A stretch of 64,000 bases of DNA from a bacterium (GCA_963662285.2 CAXXMV010000002.1:288001-352000), one strand, 5' to 3'; counted from the stretch's first letter, positions 3,071-26,381 are shown. The notes: generated by a model not told the origin, from the sequence alone. Made by a program: numbers and translations.

Positions 3071-3218
3071 TATTGAAAATCAGGGAATTTTTGTCTGGAT
3101 TACTTGCATAATATTTTTATATACGAAATTTCTACATCTACGTTATTTGATTCAACGACTCCTTTATTGAATTAAATGCAATAAGAGATAACCTTTTAAT
3201 ATAATCAAAGGTGAGGCT

Positions 3219-3944
3219 ATGCGTCTCCAGGAACTTGGTAAGAGAATTCGTACGCAACGTGAAAAGTTAGGACTGAAACAGATTGATCTGGCGCATGCGC
3301 TCCAAGTCAGTCCTCAAGCGGTCTCTAAATGGGAGCGTGCGGAAAATGGACCGGATATAACCATTCTTGGTGAACTAGCTAAATTGCTGGGCGTTTCAAC
3401 CGATTGGCTGTTGGGGCTTCATGCCGAAGATAAAGAAGTATTTGAAGCGACTGTTTTTGCCTCCAGTATTAGAGGCGCCTATAAAAAATCCCGGAAAATG
3501 GAACCGGGTGGTTTTGCGTTGTGGGCTAATGGCTTATTTTTTTCTATTACGGAATCTGTTTTGCGATTTGATGCAGTGCCCATCAAATGTATGGGAGATC
3601 AGTTTCTATGCTTTTTTTCCGGTTCAATGCATCAGGAACGGGCAATTCAAGCCACCCGTTTAACCAAAGAAATGATCGCTGAAGATTTGATAGTGGGATT
3701 GAGCTGCGGAGAGATTTTTCTCGGTTCAGTGGGACATCCTGATTATGCTCATCCAGACATTATGGGAGAAATAGTAAATCTTGCTTTTCTAACCATGGGA
3801 TGGGCTGAAACCAATACGCAAACGCATGTCGCTGTTACCAAGGATGTTATCAGCAGTATTGAGGATGTAGAAATAGGCGAAACGGAATCAGCCATATTCA
3901 AAGGCATTGAAAGTTCTGTTGAAGTGTGTGAGCTTTTGTTCTAG
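3219..3944 (+). CDS. XRE/Cro-C1 HTH protein fused to a degenerate class III nucleotidyl-cyclase-like domain
   Basis: N-terminal LKQIDLA..VSPQAVSKWE..P..LAKLLGVSTDWLL HTH; C-terminal ATVFASSIRG, PIKCMGDQFLCFF and PDIMGEIVNLA resemble cyclase motifs. Confidence 0.8.
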   Translation: MRLQELGKRIRTQREKLGLKQIDLAHALQVSPQAVSKWERAENGPDITILGELAKLLGVSTDWLLGLHAEDKEVFEATVFASSIRGAYKKSRKMEPGGFALWANGLFFSITESVLRFDAVPIKCMGDQFLCFFSGSMHQERAIQATRLTKEMIAEDLIVGLSCGEIFLGSVGHPDYAHPDIMGEIVNLAFLTMGWAETNTQTHVAVTKDVISSIEDVEIGETESAIFKGIESSVEVCELLF

Positions 3945-18676: not shown

Positions 18677-21124
18677 TTGATGGAGAGCAAAGTGATAAAA
18701 CCCCGCTATGCCAAAATCGATCTTCATTGTCACTCGTGGGCGTCTGACCGTCCTTCACTATGGTTAATGCAGAGGCTGGGTTGTCCGGAAAGTTTCATTT
18801 CCCCCGACCATGTGCGTGAATCGGCCATGCAAAGGGATATGGATTTTGTCACTATCACCGATCACAATACTATTGATGGCGTCGTAAAATTACAAAAATA
18901 CGACAATGTCATCATCGGTGAAGAGGTGACGACCTACTTTCCCGACGATGTTAAAGTACATGTGATTTGCCTGGATATAACGGAACAACAGCACCATGAA
19001 ATTGATAATGTACGAGGCGATATTTTCGAACTGGTTCGTTATTTAAACCAGCATGATATCTTCCATTACTGCGCCCATCCGCTTCATAAAGTTAATGGAC
19101 GCTTGACCTGGGAATTATTCGAGCAGTTAATTCTGCTATTCAAAAACTTTGAGATACTAAATGGAACCCGCTTACGCCGGTTGAATCATGCCGTCCAAAA
19201 GGTTCTGGAAAGTTTAACGCCCGAAGAGATCCAGCGCTTGTCGCATAAACACGGTATCGAGCCAGTCGGTCAACGCCCTTGGGAGAAGAATACCTACGCC
19301 GGAACGGATGACCATAGCGGACTCTTCGTCGGTTCCTGTTTCACCGAAGTAGAGACCGAATCCATGACCCGCGAAGGCGTTATGGAGGGATTGCGTCAGG
19401 GCAAAACGCGCATCAATGGCGACAGCGATGGAATATTGACCTTAGCCCATCAGGTTAACAGCATCGCCTATCAATATTACCGCAGCAAAATCGGTCCGGA
19501 TTCCAGTGAATTGCTGCATCTTCTGGGAAGGATATTTGAACGCAACAAGCCTTTCAAAATGCCCTCCCGGCTAAGGCTGCGCAAAGGATTAAAAAAACTC
19601 CTTAAATATTTCTGGAAGCCCAAAGGCTCTAAAATCAACCTTATCGAAGAGATCAGAGAGGTTGTGCGCAACAGCATCTCTTTCCGGTCGCTTTTCGAAG
19701 AAGGATTGATGACGCGGGAAGAATATAATACCCATGTCTTCAATCTCTCCTCGGAAGTGTTCGACCAGATGATTATCAATGTCTCAGAGAAGCCTCAACT
19801 GCTGCACTATTTCATCCTGTTGGCGCCTACCGTGTTGGCTTCATACATGATGGTTTGTCAAAACCTTCATTCTGAACGTGATATTATTGAAGATGCGGAA
19901 CACTATCTTGGCATTGTGCGCAAACCCAAGGTAGCCTGGTTCACCGATTCTTTCGCCAATATGGATGGCGTATCCAAAACTTGCCGCATGTTCATGGATG
20001 CTTCCCGAAAAAGGGATAAAGACCTGACCATTATCACCAGCCACTCAGAGGAACTTGAAGGCGCCAATGTAATTAATTTCCAGCCTATACGCGAATTCCC
20101 CACTCCGGGCTACGAAAAAGTCAAACTCTACATCCCCTCCATACTCAAGGTTTTTCATTACATCGAGCAACAGGATTTTGATTCTATAGTTGTCAGTACG
20201 CCAGGACCGATTGGTTTGATCGGATTGTTATGCGCCAAACTGATGCATCTTCCGGTTCACGGCATTTACCATACGGACTTGCCGCGAATCGCCCTGCAAG
20301 TATCGAACGACGCCATGTTTGGTAAGTTGGCGCTGGTTATAACCCGTATGTTCTACACCCATACCGATCACGTCATGTCTCCTTCTAAATGGTATCAGGA
20401 AGATATATGCAATCTCGGGATTCCATTGGAGCGCACTAGCATAATGGAGCGATGGATTGATACGAATACGTTTAATCCCGGTTTGCGGGATGAGAACTAT
20501 TGGAATAATAAAGCCGACTGCAACCTGCTTTTCGTCGGTCGCATCTCCAAAGACAAGAACCTAGATTTATTGATCGAACTATATGAAAATCTCGCGCCGC
20601 AATACCATAATTTCGTCATACACTGCGTAGGCGATGGACCATATCTAAAAGAGATGCAACGTAAAACAGCTTCCATGCCGCGTTTTATCATGACTGGCGC
20701 CAAGTTCAAAGATGATCTCGCCGCCGCTTATGCTTCTTCAGATATGTTTGTCTACCCAGGATTATTAGACACTTTCGGTAACGTAATTGTGGAAGCGCAG
20801 GCTTCAGGGCTTCCCTGCGTGGTGATGAATGAAGGCGGTCCGCAAGAACTTATTCAAGCGCAAAAAACCGGATTCGTGGCGCGTACCAACATGGAATTCA
20901 TCAATGCAGCTTCAGAACTGATCAACAACCGACAACGGAGAAAAGAGATGGGGCGGTGCGCCGCTGAATATGCTGGACATCGTTTCGCCGAAGAGGCTAT
21001 CTTTACAAAATTCTGGCAAACAGTTACAAGTCCCATGCCCGAAGATATCGCAAATCACGAGTTCAGGTTCTCTTTTAACCGCAAACATGAATCCCGTGTC
21101 GTGGTTCCCCTGCGTTCCGCGTAA
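18677..21124 (+). CDS. PHP-domain / GT4 glycosyltransferase fusion
   Basis: DLHCHS, ITDHN, AHP and TDDH (PHP); DGVSK, FVGRISKDKN and DTFGNVIVEAQASGLP (GT4). Confidence 0.85.
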   Translation: MMESKVIKPRYAKIDLHCHSWASDRPSLWLMQRLGCPESFISPDHVRESAMQRDMDFVTITDHNTIDGVVKLQKYDNVIIGEEVTTYFPDDVKVHVICLDITEQQHHEIDNVRGDIFELVRYLNQHDIFHYCAHPLHKVNGRLTWELFEQLILLFKNFEILNGTRLRRLNHAVQKVLESLTPEEIQRLSHKHGIEPVGQRPWEKNTYAGTDDHSGLFVGSCFTEVETESMTREGVMEGLRQGKTRINGDSDGILTLAHQVNSIAYQYYRSKIGPDSSELLHLLGRIFERNKPFKMPSRLRLRKGLKKLLKYFWKPKGSKINLIEEIREVVRNSISFRSLFEEGLMTREEYNTHVFNLSSEVFDQMIINVSEKPQLLHYFILLAPTVLASYMMVCQNLHSERDIIEDAEHYLGIVRKPKVAWFTDSFANMDGVSKTCRMFMDASRKRDKDLTIITSHSEELEGANVINFQPIREFPTPGYEKVKLYIPSILKVFHYIEQQDFDSIVVSTPGPIGLIGLLCAKLMHLPVHGIYHTDLPRIALQVSNDAMFGKLALVITRMFYTHTDHVMSPSKWYQEDICNLGIPLERTSIMERWIDTNTFNPGLRDENYWNNKADCNLLFVGRISKDKNLDLLIELYENLAPQYHNFVIHCVGDGPYLKEMQRKTASMPRFIMTGAKFKDDLAAAYASSDMFVYPGLLDTFGNVIVEAQASGLPCVVMNEGGPQELIQAQKTGFVARTNMEFINAASELINNRQRRKEMGRCAAEYAGHRFAEEAIFTKFWQTVTSPMPEDIANHEFRFSFNRKHESRVVVPLRSA

Positions 21125-21147
21125 TAAGGGAAGCGAAGCGGTTTGAA

Positions 21148-22074
21148 CTATGCGAGTTTTTGATGCAAACCCGCATAGGTTGCAGGCGTAAACTTATTCT
21201 TACGTATATAAGAGAATGTAAGGTCGAGCATCTTCATTTCAGGATCAAACTGATGCAATGACCAGGGATGCCAAATTAAGGAAATATAAGTTTTCTTTTG
21301 GCTGAGAGTTTTCTCGAAAAAGATTTTATTGATGGCAAACTCTTCTTGTGGAGTCGTAATATAGCCTTTTGGTATGGCCTCTGGCATAGCGGGAGGCCAG
21401 AGAGTGATCCGTTTAGGCCCCATTTTGTTGTTATTCTTCAATAGGTTTTCATGCCAGCCATGGCCGGGTAGTTCCCATAGGTCAGGAAAACCATTTTCCG
21501 CATAAGTAAACGGCATGTTCAATAACGTGGGCAGTGAATAATCCGGCCCCCAGAGCATACTGCTGGTATATAGGTAACCCGCCTCTTCACAAAAACCTAA
21601 AACATCTTTGGCGTTCTTAAATCCATGTTCAAATCCACATCCCGGACGCATTCCCAGACAGGGGCGCTCAAATACATCTTCAATAATTTTCTTCCCCTTA
21701 AATATTTCAATTCTTTTGTCTTCAAGAGAAATAGCGGATCCGCAAAAGGGGTTATCTCTTAACATTCGGTGCGAGTAGGTATGCGAAGCGATTTCAAAAA
21801 GTGGGTCATCTAATAATTTGCGATATTCAACAGGATTGGCTTGCAGCGTCTTGCCAACGATAAAGAAAGTCGCGGGCATTTCATGCCGCTTATGCATTTC
21901 GACGATTTTCTTACAAGCATCCAGGCATGACGGAGATTCTGTATCATAAGCAGCAATATATAAAGGATTACCTGGATTGGTTTGTTGTGCGCTGGATGAC
22001 CGGGCAAGAGCCGCCGCCCCTACTCCACTGGCTAATGTCGTCTGCAAAAACCGTCTTCTTAGCATAGATGCCAT
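21148..22074 (-). CDS. Tat-exported polysaccharide deacetylase (NodB fold)
   Basis: RRRFL twin-arginine motif; YDTE, ATFFIVG, EIASHTYSH and WHPW motifs. Confidence 0.8.
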   Translation of the reverse strand: MASMLRRRFLQTTLASGVGAAALARSSSAQQTNPGNPLYIAAYDTESPSCLDACKKIVEMHKRHEMPATFFIVGKTLQANPVEYRKLLDDPLFEIASHTYSHRMLRDNPFCGSAISLEDKRIEIFKGKKIIEDVFERPCLGMRPGCGFEHGFKNAKDVLGFCEEAGYLYTSSMLWGPDYSLPTLLNMPFTYAENGFPDLWELPGHGWHENLLKNNNKMGPKRITLWPPAMPEAIPKGYITTPQEEFAINKIFFEKTLSQKKTYISLIWHPWSLHQFDPEMKMLDLTFSYIRKNKFTPATYAGLHQKLA

Positions 22075-22252
22075 GGCTGGTTCCTTTCGATGATTAATAA
22101 TTTGTAATGCAAACGATAATTCTAGACTTTCAATATTTCTAGTGAATCTATCATCTATCTACAGCATTTCTTAGACCTTTCTTGCTTATTAGGCAATTTT
22201 ATGGTGAAATTAATTAGATTCACAATCCATCTTCAGATCAAGGCGGTGGTGA

Positions 22253-22308
22253 ATGTACGTAAAAATCTATTCCAGTACGACAATGGGGATTGAAGCCTAC
22301 ATCATGGA
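22253..22308 (+). pseudogene. Duplicated 5' fragment of comM (att-like left repeat)
   Basis: 51/56 bp identical to 23117-23172; reads MYVKIYSSTTMGIEAYIME versus MYVKIFSSATMGIEAYIME, then diverges and stops after 36 codons. Confidence 0.85.
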
Positions 22309-22449
22309 GATCATGAACATGAACTTAATTGTAATAGAGGGGGAGCAGGTTAGACCCAATTAGGGAAATTGCTACAATGACAGTAATACAATGTTCAGTA
22401 TATGCTTAAAATCCAATATATTCTCACTGCTTGCCAGAGAGATTAAACA

Positions 22450-22956
22450 ATGGGACAAATCAGCAACAATTTCGCTTTCATTGATAGCCAGAATCTTTAT
22501 AAGGGGATAAATGATTGTGGTTGGAAATTAGATTTTAACCGTTTTCGAGTTTACCTTAGGGATAAATACAGAGTAACAAAAGCATTTCTTTTTATTGGAT
22601 ATATTGCCGGAAATGAAACGCTCTATACTTCATTGCAGCAGTATGGCTATCTGCTTATTTTCAAACCTACTCTTGAATATAAAAAAAATGGAAAAAGATA
22701 TACCAAAGGCAATGTTGATGCGGAGTTAGTATTACACGCCATCCTTGAGTTTTCAAATTATGACAAAGCAATTCTAGTGTCAGGGGATGGTGATTTTCAC
22801 TGTTTGATTGAGTATTTAGTAAAACATAATAAACTCGGAAAAATATTGATTCCTAACAGGAAAAGATATTCCGCCCTTCTGAGGAAATTCAGGCCATACT
22901 TCGCGTTTCTGGATAATCTTAATATCAAGATTGGGATTGGAGATGAACAAAAATAA
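22450..22956 (+). CDS. NYN domain (LabA/DUF88, PIN-like) ribonuclease
   Basis: FIDSQNL, KGNVDAEL and VSGDGDF acidic catalytic motifs intact. Confidence 0.9.
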   Translation: MGQISNNFAFIDSQNLYKGINDCGWKLDFNRFRVYLRDKYRVTKAFLFIGYIAGNETLYTSLQQYGYLLIFKPTLEYKKNGKRYTKGNVDAELVLHAILEFSNYDKAILVSGDGDFHCLIEYLVKHNKLGKILIPNRKRYSALLRKFRPYFAFLDNLNIKIGIGDEQK

Positions 22957-23009
22957 AAGAGGGAGAGTAACCTTCGGACGAAACCTTAGGTGTGCCCCCT
23001 CATCGTGAT
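22949..23009 (-). ncRNA. Candidate ~60-nt small RNA convergent with the NYN gene
   Basis: AUCACGAU-GAGGGGG-CAC-ACCU-AA-GG-UUUCGU-CC-GA-AGGU-UACU-CUCCCUC-UUUUAUUUUU hairpin plus U tail, directly downstream of a sigma70 promoter. Confidence 0.65.
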
Positions 23010-23015
23010 ATCTAG

Positions 23016-23043
23016 AGTATACCAAGATAAAAGAATTCGTCAA
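23016..23043 (-). promoter_or_regulatory. Sigma70-type promoter driving the candidate sRNA
   Basis: TTGACG (23043-23038), 16-nt spacer, TG-G-TATACT extended -10 (23021-23016). Confidence 0.7.
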
Positions 23044-23116
23044 TATATTGTTTCACGTTGTGAGTTCATCTTTTCCCGACATATCTAATCTATGCTAAAT
23101 GGGGGCGCTTAATCCA

Positions 23117-24652
23117 ATGTACGTCAAAATCTTTTCCAGCGCGACAATGGGGATCGAAGCCTACATCATGGAAGTCGAGATGGACATGACTTCCGGTCAG
23201 CCGGGGTTGACTATTGTCGGTCTGCCGGACGCCGCTGTTAAAGAGAGCAAGGAACGGGTTCGCTCGGCATTAGTCAATTGCGGCTTTGCTTATCCGCCCA
23301 AGCGCATGACTCTCAATCTGGCGCCGGCTGATGTCCCCAAAGAAGGCTCGGCGCTTGATCTGCCTATCGCTATCGCCATTCTGGCTGCTAATGGATTGAT
23401 TCCCCTTGAGCGTTTGGAAGATTCCCTATTGTTGGGCGAGTTAGCCCTGGATGGAACATTGCGCCCTATCCGCGGCGCCTTGCCCGTGGCTATGGCGGCG
23501 CAGAAAAGGAACTTTAAACGTTTCCTGCTTCCATCCATGAATGCCAGCGAAGCGGCGGTTGTTGAAAATTTAGATATATATCCAGTCAAGACGCTTCCTG
23601 AGGCTTTTAATATTCTTAACGGTAATGGAGATATCAAACCGTTTACGATCAACGTCGAACATTTATTCAGCCAGGCGGCGCATTACGAAATAGATTTCGC
23701 TGACGTCAAAGGTCAGGAACACGCCAAACGGACGTTGGAAGTGGCGGCGGCTGGAGGACACAATCTGATTATGGTCGGGCCGCCGGGATCAGGAAAAACC
23801 ATGCTGGCTAAACGGCTGCCGACTATTCTGCCGCCCATGAGTTTCGAGGAAGCCCTGGAGACCACCAAAATCCATAGCATCCACGGTTCTCTGCCGCCTA
23901 AGCGGGCTATGATCGCCACGCGCCCCTTCCGCTCGCCGCATCACTCGGTTTCTGACGCGGGATTGATTGGCGGCGGCATCCATCCCCGTCCGGGAGAAGT
24001 GAGCCTGTCGCATCACGGAGTGCTCTTTTTAGATGAACTGCCCGAATTTACCCGCAATGTGCTGGAGAATCTTCGTCAACCGTTGGAAGACGGAAGGGTG
24101 ACCATCTCGAGGGCTTCGGGTTCGCTTACTTTCCCCAGCCGGTTCATGCTGGTCGCCGCAGCTAATCCCTGCCCTTGCGGTTATTTTGGCGACTTACAGC
24201 ACACTTGCCAATGTACGCCAAATAAGATTCAAGCCTATATGTCAAAACTATCCGGTCCACTGCTTGACCGGATAGATATTCACGTCGAGGTTCCCAGCGT
24301 CTCTTTTGATGAGCTGCACTCGCCGCCAACCGGGGATAAATCGTCTGTTATCCGCAAACGGGTTCGACAAGCCAGAGACAAACAACTGGAGCGTTTTGTC
24401 AATCACAAAATCTATTGCAACGCCCACATGAGTTCAAAAGACCTGAAAGATTTCTGTCCCATGGATGAGGCTACCCGCGACATGCTGCGCTCCGGCCTGG
24501 AGCGTCTCGGGCTTTCAGCCCGCGCCTACGACCGGGTAATAAAGGTAGCCCGCACTATCGCCGATTTGGCTCACAGCGAAGACATCCGCCCCGAACATAT
24601 TTGCGAAGCAGTGCAATACCGCACCCTGGATCGGAAACTGTGGCTGCGGTGA
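23117..24652 (+). CDS. comM: ComM/YifB Mg-chelatase-like AAA+ ATPase
   Basis: IVGLPDAAVKESKERV, NLAPADVPKEG, GPPGSGKT, PFRSPHH, LFLDELPEF and NPCPCG motifs. Confidence 0.95.
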   Translation: MYVKIFSSATMGIEAYIMEVEMDMTSGQPGLTIVGLPDAAVKESKERVRSALVNCGFAYPPKRMTLNLAPADVPKEGSALDLPIAIAILAANGLIPLERLEDSLLLGELALDGTLRPIRGALPVAMAAQKRNFKRFLLPSMNASEAAVVENLDIYPVKTLPEAFNILNGNGDIKPFTINVEHLFSQAAHYEIDFADVKGQEHAKRTLEVAAAGGHNLIMVGPPGSGKTMLAKRLPTILPPMSFEEALETTKIHSIHGSLPPKRAMIATRPFRSPHHSVSDAGLIGGGIHPRPGEVSLSHHGVLFLDELPEFTRNVLENLRQPLEDGRVTISRASGSLTFPSRFMLVAAANPCPCGYFGDLQHTCQCTPNKIQAYMSKLSGPLLDRIDIHVEVPSVSFDELHSPPTGDKSSVIRKRVRQARDKQLERFVNHKIYCNAHMSSKDLKDFCPMDEATRDMLRSGLERLGLSARAYDRVIKVARTIADLAHSEDIRPEHICEAVQYRTLDRKLWLR

Positions 24653-24683: not shown

Positions 24684-26381
24684 TTACTTTCTTTTAAGTC
24701 TATTTTCTTCTAGTTGAACAACTCCCAGTGAGCGGGGTTGGAGTTTGAAAGTTATTGAATTCTGGTTGTTCTCAATTTCGACAGATTCTTTTCGGGGTAG
24801 AGCCAGCGCTTTGTTTTTGATGCTCGAAAGTTCTGATACAGAGAGCGGCCTATCAAACTTAACGCTGAATGTAACTGCTGTATCGTTAAAATTTTCCACC
24901 GCCATTACGCCATTGTCATAAAGATAAAGAGAGACGCAGGTCGGTCCACTGATCTCCATTCCTAACGCTTTTAATAAAGGCTTTCTGATCTCCTCTAGTT
25001 GCTTGCTGTCTAGTTTATATAAATCACGTGGTTCCTGGGGAATCTGAATAACTTTTACTGACTTGGGTATTTCAAGGTGTTTGCTCTGGAGCAGATCTTT
25101 CATATTATGGGTTAGCAAAACTGGTTTGCCGTCAGTGATGAATTTATTGAATTGTCTGGGGAAAACGCCTTGCTTCCAACTCTGCGTTGCGAATAATGCG
25201 CAGGGAAAAGCGGCGTCTATCGTACTTAATGGCGCCATGGGGATGCCCAACATGCCCAGGAAATCATAGATGTACATCTCTTTCGGTGCATCGCTGTTAG
25301 GAATCTTTACCGCCAAAACACCGGTAGGTTTTGCGCCATGAATCAGTTTTGCTAATTCAAATAGCAGGGGCAATTCTTTTCTTAATTCAACCACATTGTC
25401 TGCATGTTCGTCTGACAATAGGGTTTTGTAATTAAACAACAATGCATCTCTCGCTCCTCCAAGGATGGTTTGGCGCGCTTGCTCAACATAAGTCTTGGGA
25501 TTTGTTCCATAAGGATCAAACCAGCCGCCTCCGGTTTTGGCGCCGCCGACGTCGGTTAACCATTGCATAATGAAGAAGGCTTCATATTGCGCTTTGCGTC
25601 CCCATTGCTTACTATCGGGATCACGCGTTTCAGTACCCACCCAGATGATATCAAAATCCCTGGTCTGCGCATCAACGTCATATCCTCGATTATGGAAATT
25701 GTCATACCACTGGGGATATTTTATAATGACTTTAACATTGGGATTCACTTCCCGCGCCGGTTTAAGGATTCGCTCATGACTAGCGCGAAGCATCAGGTCG
25801 CATCGATAGTCAGCCCAGCTGCGTTCGCCACGGGCTTTTTCAGAAATTTCAGTAGTATCATCGGTAAACAGAAAATCATCGATCATAATAACGTCAAACA
25901 AAGACGCAGTGAAACGGAATATTTTCTCACACTCTTCCAGGGTTTTTGGCATCTCGTAATTTGATACCAATTTCCATCCGTTTGATTCAACTCCAATTCC
26001 AGTAGTTGTGACGCATCCGTCGGTTATAAAGCCTGCTTTCTTAAAAGCGTCGCGTCCCCTTATCATGTCTTCTTCTTTAGCCATATATCCATTGCGGAAA
26101 GTTTCGATAAAAACCCGCGTCACGCCGGTTTCTTTACACCATTGAATAGCCTTGTCGACTCCTTCATCAGTAGAGAAATCATCGCGAACGGTTTGCGCAG
26201 TGATTAGAGTTGAAAACTGAAATGTTTTTTCATATATCTTTGCCAAGAACGAAAGTTTCGATTCATCACTGGAGACGGTGATTGCAGGCAATAATAAAAA
26301 GGTTATAAACATTATTACTGGAACCAATGATCTGTAATTCTGATGAGTATTAATGAAAAGATGTTTTAGATAAATCTTCAT
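24684..26381 (-). CDS. Secreted glycoside-hydrolase-like hypothetical protein
   Basis: Signal peptide; IMIDDF, IIKYPQWY and WVGTETRD segments suggest a TIM-barrel GH-like fold. Confidence 0.5.
   Translation of the reverse strand: MKIYLKHLFINTHQNYRSLVPVIMFITFLLLPAITVSSDESKLSFLAKIYEKTFQFSTLITAQTVRDDFSTDEGVDKAIQWCKETGVTRVFIETFRNGYMAKEEDMIRGRDAFKKAGFITDGCVTTTGIGVESNGWKLVSNYEMPKTLEECEKIFRFTASLFDVIMIDDFLFTDDTTEISEKARGERSWADYRCDLMLRASHERILKPAREVNPNVKVIIKYPQWYDNFHNRGYDVDAQTRDFDIIWVGTETRDPDSKQWGRKAQYEAFFIMQWLTDVGGAKTGGGWFDPYGTNPKTYVEQARQTILGGARDALLFNYKTLLSDEHADNVVELRKELPLLFELAKLIHGAKPTGVLAVKIPNSDAPKEMYIYDFLGMLGIPMAPLSTIDAAFPCALFATQSWKQGVFPRQFNKFITDGKPVLLTHNMKDLLQSKHLEIPKSVKVIQIPQEPRDLYKLDSKQLEEIRKPLLKALGMEISGPTCVSLYLYDNGVMAVENFNDTAVTFSVKFDRPLSVSELSSIKNKALALPRKESVEIENNQNSITFKLQPRSLGVVQLEENRLKRK

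Follow-up and report, generated by a model that had tools for sequence, protein, structure and literature searches.

A conserved small RNA gene converges on a NYN nuclease gene in a putatively mobile bacterial cassette

A gene for a NYN nuclease and a gene for a small RNA converge, with overlapping 3′ ends, in a 64,000-nt stretch of bacterial DNA (GCA_963662285.2 CAXXMV010000002.1:288001-352000, hereafter the window), and the same pair recurs at related loci in many phyla. The two genes probably constitute a self-restraining selfish pair of a kind not yet described. Comparison of homologous loci documents conserved linkage, geometry, promoter, RNA structure and active-site residues, together with a signature of mobility. 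We tentatively favour a reading in which the pair is horizontally mobile and a 3′-overlapping cis-antisense RNA holds an active PIN-like nuclease in check, in the manner of a type I toxin-antitoxin system. Full-text searches of the literature found no description of a NYN and small-RNA pair.

The nuclease gene and its convergent neighbour

Within the window, the cassette comprises the following features.

22313 to 22449, plus strand: cassette left arm, in which a promoter-like site (TAGACC-16-TACAAT plus TG at 22351-22378) precedes NYN; from a promoter scan and comparison with metagenome locus L136
22450 to 22956, plus strand: NYN (LabA-like, PF01936/COG1432) nuclease gene, 168 aa; from the open reading frame, Pfam, homologues and predicted fold
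22945 to 23009, minus strand: predicted small RNA of about 60 nt, starting at the A of AUCACGA (23009), ending in a U-run and overlapping the NYN stop
22958 to 23000, minus strand: two-helix hairpin, body and terminator of the predicted small RNA; from fold, covariation and covariance model R1 (80.6 bits)
23016 to 23043, minus strand: sigma-70-type promoter of the small RNA, TTGACG-16 nt-TG-n-TATACT; from a promoter scan and an 80-locus comparison
23044 to 23060, no strand: right-hand limit of the conserved cassette, beyond which homology to other cassettes is lost; alignment with L136 reaches 23060, that with locus L054 about 614 nt after the NYN start, near 23064

The 168-residue protein matched the Pfam NYN profile (PF01936) over residues 10-139 with 54.4 bits against a cut-off of 24.2. 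This was the only Pfam match, and PADLOC returned NYN PDLC01154 and a weak HEC-09. The first-pass annotation of this DNA had stated that the acidic motifs of the family are kept, and an alignment of 30 sequences agrees: three aspartates (D12, D90 and D115) are invariant in it, and conservation of D113 is at least 90%. An AlphaFold model built from the 30-sequence alignment reached a pLDDT of 95.9. Foldseek matched this model to 2qip (E 5e-9, TM 0.76) and to the NYN domain of MARF1 (5yaa, E 9.5e-4), and the modelled fold is PIN-like, resembling solved NYN domains. A Vibrio protein of unknown function, 2qip was also the only solved relative by sequence (phmmer, E 1.4e-7). With its catalytic aspartates kept and its fold confidently predicted, the protein is apparently an active PIN-like nuclease. 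Passages of the PIN-superfamily survey by Matelska et al. (2017, PMC5499597) class this NYN group as 'function unknown' and mention no RNA partner.

On the opposite strand, the site that the first-pass annotation had taken for a near-consensus sigma-70 promoter (23043-23016) scores 10/12 and is the top promoter-like site within 21900-23400. The hairpin it had drawn was reproduced exactly: a 7-bp stem with one G-U pair, a CAC/UACU internal loop, a 4-bp stem, an AA/GA loop, and a 2-bp stem with a UUUCGU loop, the minus-strand fold amounting to -18.6 kcal/mol. The hairpin begins two bases 3′ of the NYN stop codon, and the U-run behind it covers the TAA at 22954-22956, as had been said of the U tail. 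As a fold alone it is unremarkable (z = -1.73, with 12 of 200 shuffles equally stable); what lifts the feature beyond chance is the comparison across loci, not the sequence of the single window.

On the minus strand, a G+C-rich hairpin followed by UUUUAUUUUU has the make-up of an intrinsic terminator. A simple consensus terminator scan listed none in the region, probably because the internal loops break its stem rule. No U-run follows the hairpin on the plus strand, so the NYN message probably runs through it. Rfam covariance models gave no match at the small RNA in window positions 21000-24500 (E ≤ 10), nor in 12 further loci (E ≤ 1), where two tRNAs were the only matches. Two coding candidates were set aside. 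The peptide AUG-AGG-GGG-CAC-ACC-UAA within the small RNA is not conserved, there being subfamilies without the AUG, and a 75-aa minus-strand open reading frame (22816-23043) was given no weight as a gene.

Conservation of promoter, start and structure

A homologue scan with one genome per species recovered at least 489 relatives of the NYN protein, and the best 80 of these, 56-72% identical, were compared in detail. By record titles, the hosts of the best 80 are Patescibacteria, Omnitrophota, Elusimicrobiota, Planctomycetota, Spirochaetota and others; across phyla, such conservation of the protein is unusual. The same layout in the same orientation lies 3′ of the NYN stop in 79 of the 80 loci, which are related to each other and do not count independently. 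In the 80th, the contig ends 35 nt after the NYN match. The shared layout consists of a TTGACA/TATAAT-like promoter, an AUCACGA start, a covarying two-helix hairpin, a UNCGU-type loop and a U-run, and was called by eye in several distant loci. A conserved antisense promoter and covarying hairpin in the 3′ flanks of NYN homologues had been proposed as a check on the first-pass annotation, and these are what recurs in the 79 loci.

Promoters were measured on the window and the 79 loci, with 284 windows as controls. Scores of at least 9/12 occurred in 77 of 80 loci, compared with 8 of 284 controls, and 68 of the 80 reached at least 10/12. The TTG of the -35 box is invariant across the 80 loci. 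From the end of the -10 hexamer to the A of AUCACGA the distance is 5-9 nt in 78 of 80 loci, and the AUCACGA block itself is 95-100% conserved in the alignment. Together, this spacing and conservation place the transcription start on that A, position 23009 in the window.

Support for the hairpin came from two alignments. In one fitted to covariance model R1, which leans towards the model's own structure, 14 of 15 hairpin pairs show changes on both sides, and paired cells amount to 82.5%, a share that none of 500 shuffles attained (67.4%) and that fell to 57.6% or less when partners were slid. An independent MAFFT/RNAalifold run found compensatory changes in 8 of 9 pairs. G-U pairs favour the minus strand, 63 against 39; a misregistered subfamily accounts for part of the 39. 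Hardly any variation occurs in the loop (G-G, U-U-Y-G-U, C-C), its G-U-C-C being conserved at 94-100%, and the U-run in alignment columns 59-67 has 60-89% T. A distant subfamily keeps the architecture and the AUCACGA start with entirely different stems and a UACGU or UGCGU loop.

The position of the RNA relative to the coding sequence is also kept, with the NYN stop inside the hairpin or at most 10 nt before it in 73 of 80 loci. Complementarity between the small RNA and the NYN translation start is no greater than in shuffles (mean z 0.11; z < -2 in 0 of 40), which confines any control to the 3′ end. NYN itself contains no conserved target for the AUCACGA block. A pseudoknot between tail and loop (ACGA/UCGU) was rejected, as the AUCACCA variants in loci L088, L089 and L095 come without a compensating change.

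Co-occurrence of the two genes

Each of five genomes searched whole holds one NYN gene and one R1 match, adjacent in all five. In an evenly drawn sample of 151 Patescibacteria genomes, R1 gave 26 matches in 22 genomes and NYN 49 matches in 42 genomes, and 22 of the 26 R1 matches abut and converge on 21 NYN genes. The other four are solitary, one of them beside the remnant of a NYN C-terminus. No intact NYN without the RNA was seen among the best 80 of the at least 489 relatives; with the solitary RNA genes, this gives the asymmetry expected if loss of the RNA were costly.

Of the 28 NYN matches without an R1 match, 16 were inspected. The RNA gene stands at the expected place in 10 of these distant loci, the union of 7 of 16 found by R1 with filters off (E ≤ 0.03) and 7 of 16 found by an anchor-plus-promoter pattern, which recognises 68 of the 78 known loci, with matches in 2.2% of control windows. 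Three more look similar by eye only, and in three the RNA gene is absent by R1, by the pattern and by eye. R1 had no match in 8 loci with far more distant NYN genes (29-52% identity) in genomes related to the window's own. Outside these sets, the RNA gene also lies 3′ of NYN in one viral contig and in L136.

The first-pass annotation had inferred a dedicated, self-promoted transcript and not merely a terminator. Conservation of promoter, start, hairpin and U-run, combined with co-occurrence in five of five genomes, strongly supports such a transcript at the level of sequence.

Signs of horizontal transfer

The unit of NYN and RNA is about 0.65 kb long and usually present in one copy per genome. 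The window's own genome carries one, as does each of five other genomes, and a few of the 151 sampled Patescibacteria genomes have 2-3 NYN matches. Its distribution is sporadic, beside conserved genes: 40 related genomes yielded no close NYN homologue, only matches of 29-52% identity. The G+C content of the cassette is 0.34-0.36, compared with 0.41-0.58 around it. Counted from the NYN start, homology between unrelated loci covers about 30 nt on the upstream side and about 600 nt on the downstream side, where it includes the RNA promoter.

Direct repeats of host sequence, 16-139 nt long and 87-100% identical, flank the cassette in 18 of 77 testable loci, compared with 2 of 62 and 0 of 62 for mock positions in the same loci. 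The repeats of L062 and L090 each occur only twice in their genome, which marks them as local duplications and rules out dispersed repeats as their source. One and the same element occupies distinct sites in L026 and L062, each with repeats of its own. Inspection of 15 loci put the DNA between the repeats at 595-871 nt with no shared termini, and by eye no microhomology or terminal inverted repeats were evident at these junctions. Neither conserved element ends or inverted repeats nor a target duplication of fixed length was found. In several loci (L020, L022, L094, L030), NYN has its start codon within the repeat or 2-6 nt beyond it and would there use a duplicated host promoter and start region. 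A tRNA gene is present within about 300 nt in 7 of 60 loci, and in L052 and L053 the insertion rebuilt the 5′ half of tRNA-Gly.

In L061 the repeat consists of a gene's final ~100 nt, its two copies differing at 17 positions, of which 16 are third codon positions. This rules out a simple target-site duplication in L061 and indicates that the copies evolved as coding sequence in separate lineages. Such patterns suggest that the cassette may often move between genomes by recombination anchored on one side in an adjacent conserved gene and completed on the other by illegitimate joining. For L062 and L090, whose repeats are identical and non-coding, a primary insertion mechanism is still needed.

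No intein domain was found in 34 longer NYN homologues or in 12 long proteins from the top 150 representatives, and the 'fusions' in databases are NYN behind unrelated host proteins (NUDIX, epimerase, methyltransferase) or low-complexity tails. There were no matches in 50,697 phage records, and IMG/VR held one cassette locus.

The insertion at comM

The first reading had overlooked both the mobility of the cassette, with its flanks of duplicated host sequence, and the disturbance of the 5′ region of comM. The host features in the window are the following.

22253 to 22360, plus strand: stub, a diverged second copy of the comM 5′ end, open for 35 codons; left member of direct repeat D1
23116 to 23172, plus strand: right member of the repeat and true 5′ end of comM; from direct repeat D1 and relatives' comM
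23117 to 24652, plus strand: intact comM/yifB (Mg-chelatase-like ATPase) behind the cassette; Pfam Mg_chelatase, ChlI and Mg_chelatase_C

Direct repeat D1 measures 57 nt with 91% identity and a spacing of 864 (22252-22308 and 23116-23172). It corresponds to the first ~19 codons of comM; by eye the similarity continues to about 22330, fading by codon ~25-33. Translation of the stub resembles the ComM N-terminus, and the ComM of relatives aligns over residues 1-511 from the ATG at 23117. Over the 57 nt, the right and left copies are identical to relatives' comM at 48 and 43, 41 and 39, 48 and 42, 43 and 42, and 43 and 38 positions, respectively. A plain target duplication was rejected for the window, where the two comM starts are preceded by unrelated sequences and several differences are synonymous or conservative. 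A degenerate pattern for the first 20 residues, used to trace the origin of the stub, had 0 matches in the genome contigs.

L136, a close relative from a metagenome, has the same cassette beside the same deacetylase gene, with protein identities of 87% for the deacetylase and 92% for NYN. The cassette region (22313-23060) is 92% identical to that of the window and the host flank 84%. In the compared stretch of the RNA genes, substitutions fall in the promoter spacers only, with none in the hexamers or in the part of the RNA compared. L136 has no head of the stub and differs from the window to the right of 23060. As to an empty site, L136 carries the cassette already, its contig ending in a dispersed repeat, and the family relatives are without the deacetylase-comM neighbourhood; no empty allele was seen among them.

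Relation to known systems

The closest geometry is found in type I toxin-antitoxin systems. Passages of PMC8594479 describe TxpA/RatA, BsrE-G-H, YonT and SprG/SprF as accepted type I systems whose antisense RNA lies on the 3′ side and partly overlaps the open reading frame. As far as geometry goes, these families share with the cassette a compact two-gene module and a convergent, separately promoted small RNA. The first-pass annotation had argued that the overlap is too small for a type I antisense RNA, which is a weak argument given the overlap with the stop or last codons in 73 of 80 loci and the 3′-overlapping families described in PMC8594479. Type I toxins are small hydrophobic peptides, typically <60 aa, according to PMC11264685 and PMC6563280. 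The cassette differs from these families in its product, a soluble NYN nuclease domain of 168 aa and no small hydrophobic peptide, in its RNA of about 60 nt and in its occurrence in many phyla.

Likenesses to other systems are partial. SymE/SymR of E. coli also combines a nuclease-like protein with a cis-antisense RNA, which represses the toxin; however, it is the 5′ end of symE, start included, that SymR overlaps, and the fold of SymE is AbrB-like, not NYN. In IS10, transposase is limited by RNA-OUT, which targets the message by pairing at its 5′ end. The cassette would resemble IS10 as a mobile element restraining its own enzyme with a stable stem-loop antisense RNA, but IS10 has inverted ends and a fixed target duplication and the cassette has neither. 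VapC and other PIN type II toxins share with NYN the PIN-like fold of metal-dependent nucleases and conserved acidic residues. Type II systems encode a protein antitoxin in the same operon, whereas the cassette has no such open reading frame.

Proposed mechanism and alternatives

In the explanation that we tentatively favour, NYN and the convergent small-RNA gene would be one selfish, horizontally transferred unit of about 0.65 kb. The small RNA would be made constitutively from its own near-consensus promoter. With the two genes overlapping convergently, it would by construction be a perfect complement of the NYN message where this ends, from the last codons through the stop codon into the 3′ hairpin. 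It may curb NYN output post-transcriptionally, by loop-loop contact and duplex formation, then cleavage or blocked termination. The logic would be that of a type I toxin-antitoxin system, except that the 'toxin' would be an enzyme of 168 aa. We infer that the RNA is expressed, that the message continues past the hairpin, that less NYN is made when the two pair, and that NYN left unchecked does harm.

Loops of the Y-U-N-R type are typical of fast-pairing antisense RNAs, and the loop of the main family fits this motif (Y34 100%, U35 95%, G38 99%). Combined with a strong promoter and a stable terminator hairpin, it makes up the standard kit of fast-acting antisense RNAs. Several observations speak against the antisense reading. 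Y-U-N-R fails in the distant subfamily with its UACGU and UGCGU loops, and AUCACGA and the loop are far more conserved than cis-antisense pairing needs, which hints at a protein partner. Moreover, lower mobility than that of the other types has been proposed for type I systems (PMC5367252), but the cassette spans many phyla. The three of 16 inspected distant NYN loci in which the RNA gene is absent, and the lack of added complementarity at the NYN translation start, also weigh against it.

Such a partner could be NYN itself; the first-pass annotation had proposed that the RNA may inhibit NYN, guide it or be its substrate. The small RNA might act on the protein as a pseudo-substrate inhibitor, like a type III antitoxin, as a cofactor, or as a substrate that NYN processes, and we consider this unlikely. 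The strong conservation of unpaired sequence, in the AUCACGA block and in G-U-C-C of the loop, agrees with a protein-binding RNA, as do a U-N-C-G-U loop kept in the distant subfamily on entirely different stems, the unusual conservation of NYN across phyla (56-72% identity among the best 80 of the at least 489 relatives), and the occurrence of one RNA and one NYN per genome. Type III systems (ToxIN, AbiQ) likewise join an RNase to a dedicated small RNA with sequence conserved beyond its stems. Their antitoxin, however, is a tandem repeat array that precedes the toxin gene in the same orientation and that the toxin processes, whereas the cassette has a single hairpin RNA downstream on the opposite strand, and no tandem array was found in 21900-23500. 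The toxin families also differ: Pfam and PADLOC give NYN-type matches only, and the protein is not of the ToxN/AbiQ kind. Finally, the fixed overlap with the stop codon has no role in a model of protein binding.

The mobility data bear on another reading, which we think quite improbable, namely that NYN drives the spread of the cassette by homing or insertion breaks in DNA and that the antisense RNA merely limits its dose. The patchy distribution speaks for it, with no close NYN homologue in 40 related genomes and at least 489 relatives of the protein across phyla. So do the excess of flanking host duplications over mock positions, duplicated sequences that in two genomes occur nowhere but at the insertion site, the different positions that one element occupies in L026 and L062, and insertions that reconstitute the start of a host gene (comM here, the 5′ half of tRNA-Gly in L052 and L053). 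In addition, the PIN-like fold includes DNA flap nucleases, and T5 FEN was among the weak Foldseek matches of the NYN model. Free-standing homing endonuclease genes, such as seg and mob of phage T4, resemble the cassette as single small nuclease genes that occur sporadically beside or inside conserved genes (here comM and tRNA-Gly).

Several observations argue against homing. To our knowledge, NYN is not a homing-endonuclease family, and no intron- or intein-embedded relatives were found, inteins having been sought in the 34 longer homologues and 12 long proteins given above. The cassette also differs from homing genes in having its own antisense RNA gene. It has no conserved termini or inverted repeats, its flanking repeats vary in length, and there is usually one copy per genome. 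The copies in L061 come from diverged orthologues, which indicates recombination between genomes and not a staggered cut.

More doubtful still is an autonomous minimal mobile element of a new class. NYN, perhaps RNA-loaded or RNA-timed, would break DNA at gene starts, with tens to >100 target bases duplicated, the host gene rebuilt, and a promoter and ribosome-binding site captured. If true, this would be a new nuclease-driven mobility mechanism or a new homing-endonuclease family.

The least probable account is that hairpin and promoter form a generic insulating or regulatory module (a bidirectional terminator or polymerase roadblock) with no specific tie to NYN: the hairpin and U-run do look like an intrinsic terminator and four copies are solitary, but the promoter fires into the terminator after ~10 nt so that only the hairpin is transcribed, no U-run follows on the plus strand, and R1 matched once per genome in five genomes, always at NYN, and in none of the 8 distant-NYN loci.

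Implications

If the pair is indeed a mobile nuclease gene restrained by an antisense RNA, the small RNA would represent a new, widespread and strongly conserved RNA family, absent from Rfam and present in 22 of 151 sampled Patescibacteria genomes and in several other phyla. The pair would be the first case known to us of antisense RNA restraining a PIN-like/NYN enzyme instead of a membrane peptide. The notion of an RNA-antitoxin system would be broadened, and LabA-like NYN proteins, 'function unknown' in passages of PMC5499597, would gain a testable role. The cassette would also represent a compact route of gene transfer, consisting of a coding frame and its own repressor, with host promoter and start borrowed through duplication in several loci. 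As such, it would show how genes may move among ultra-small, uncultivated bacteria.

Right end of the cassette

The cassette comprises the NYN nuclease gene and a convergent small-RNA gene with its own promoter. Two closely related Elusimicrobiota loci, L082 and L085, are 96% identical until a few bases beyond the RNA promoter. Past that point, L082 (3068-4217) contains an additional segment of ~1.15 kb relative to L085 (3068). Because the two loci diverge just past the RNA promoter, the right end of the cassette is a rearrangement point.

A metagenome contig from a close relative (L136), which carries the same cassette beside the same deacetylase gene, ends ~90 nt past the cassette. In the window's genome (G000), 31 or more places match the terminal ~60 nt of this contig with 79-97% identity:

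L216, G000:C8:1437377-1437435, match to the L136 terminus
L217, G000:C3:130306-130365, match to the L136 terminus
29 more places in G000

This terminal sequence probably represents one end of an insertion sequence, which would explain why the contig stops where it does.

Additional RNA-gene copies and neighboring genes

Some loci contain one NYN gene followed by two tandem copies of the RNA gene, or a second weak copy ~400 nt downstream. Such arrangements occur at:

G184:C4:32186-32385
L131:668-795
L069:1476-1537

Within the window, the 565-aa ORF adjoining comM (24684-26381, minus strand) had no Pfam match at E <= 0.01. An 815-aa protein (18677-21124, plus strand) is an unusual fusion by Pfam analysis: the N-terminal part matches the PHP-associated family PHP_C weakly, and a GT4 glycosyltransferase lies in the C-terminal half.

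Cassettes flanked by duplicated host sequence

At L030 (2442-3700), a NYN cassette has inserted into the beginning of another, more distantly related NYN-family gene. The flanking 36-nt repeat includes the -10 box of the promoter as well as the start codon and the first four codons. Thus, the same duplicated start is common to both NYN genes.

Two further loci, L052 and L053, carry the cassette between direct repeats:

L052:2217-2355 and 3227-3365, repeat copies
L053:2312-2418 and 3207-3331, repeat copies

In both, the repeat consists of the 5' half of tRNA-Gly(UCC) and its promoter region, with its end falling inside the anticodon loop. The L052 repeat itself contains an older insertion of ~85 nt with a 16-nt repeat of the first tRNA bases at its borders, and the order of two repeat blocks is swapped in L053. 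Together, these arrangements look like nested events at a single hot spot.
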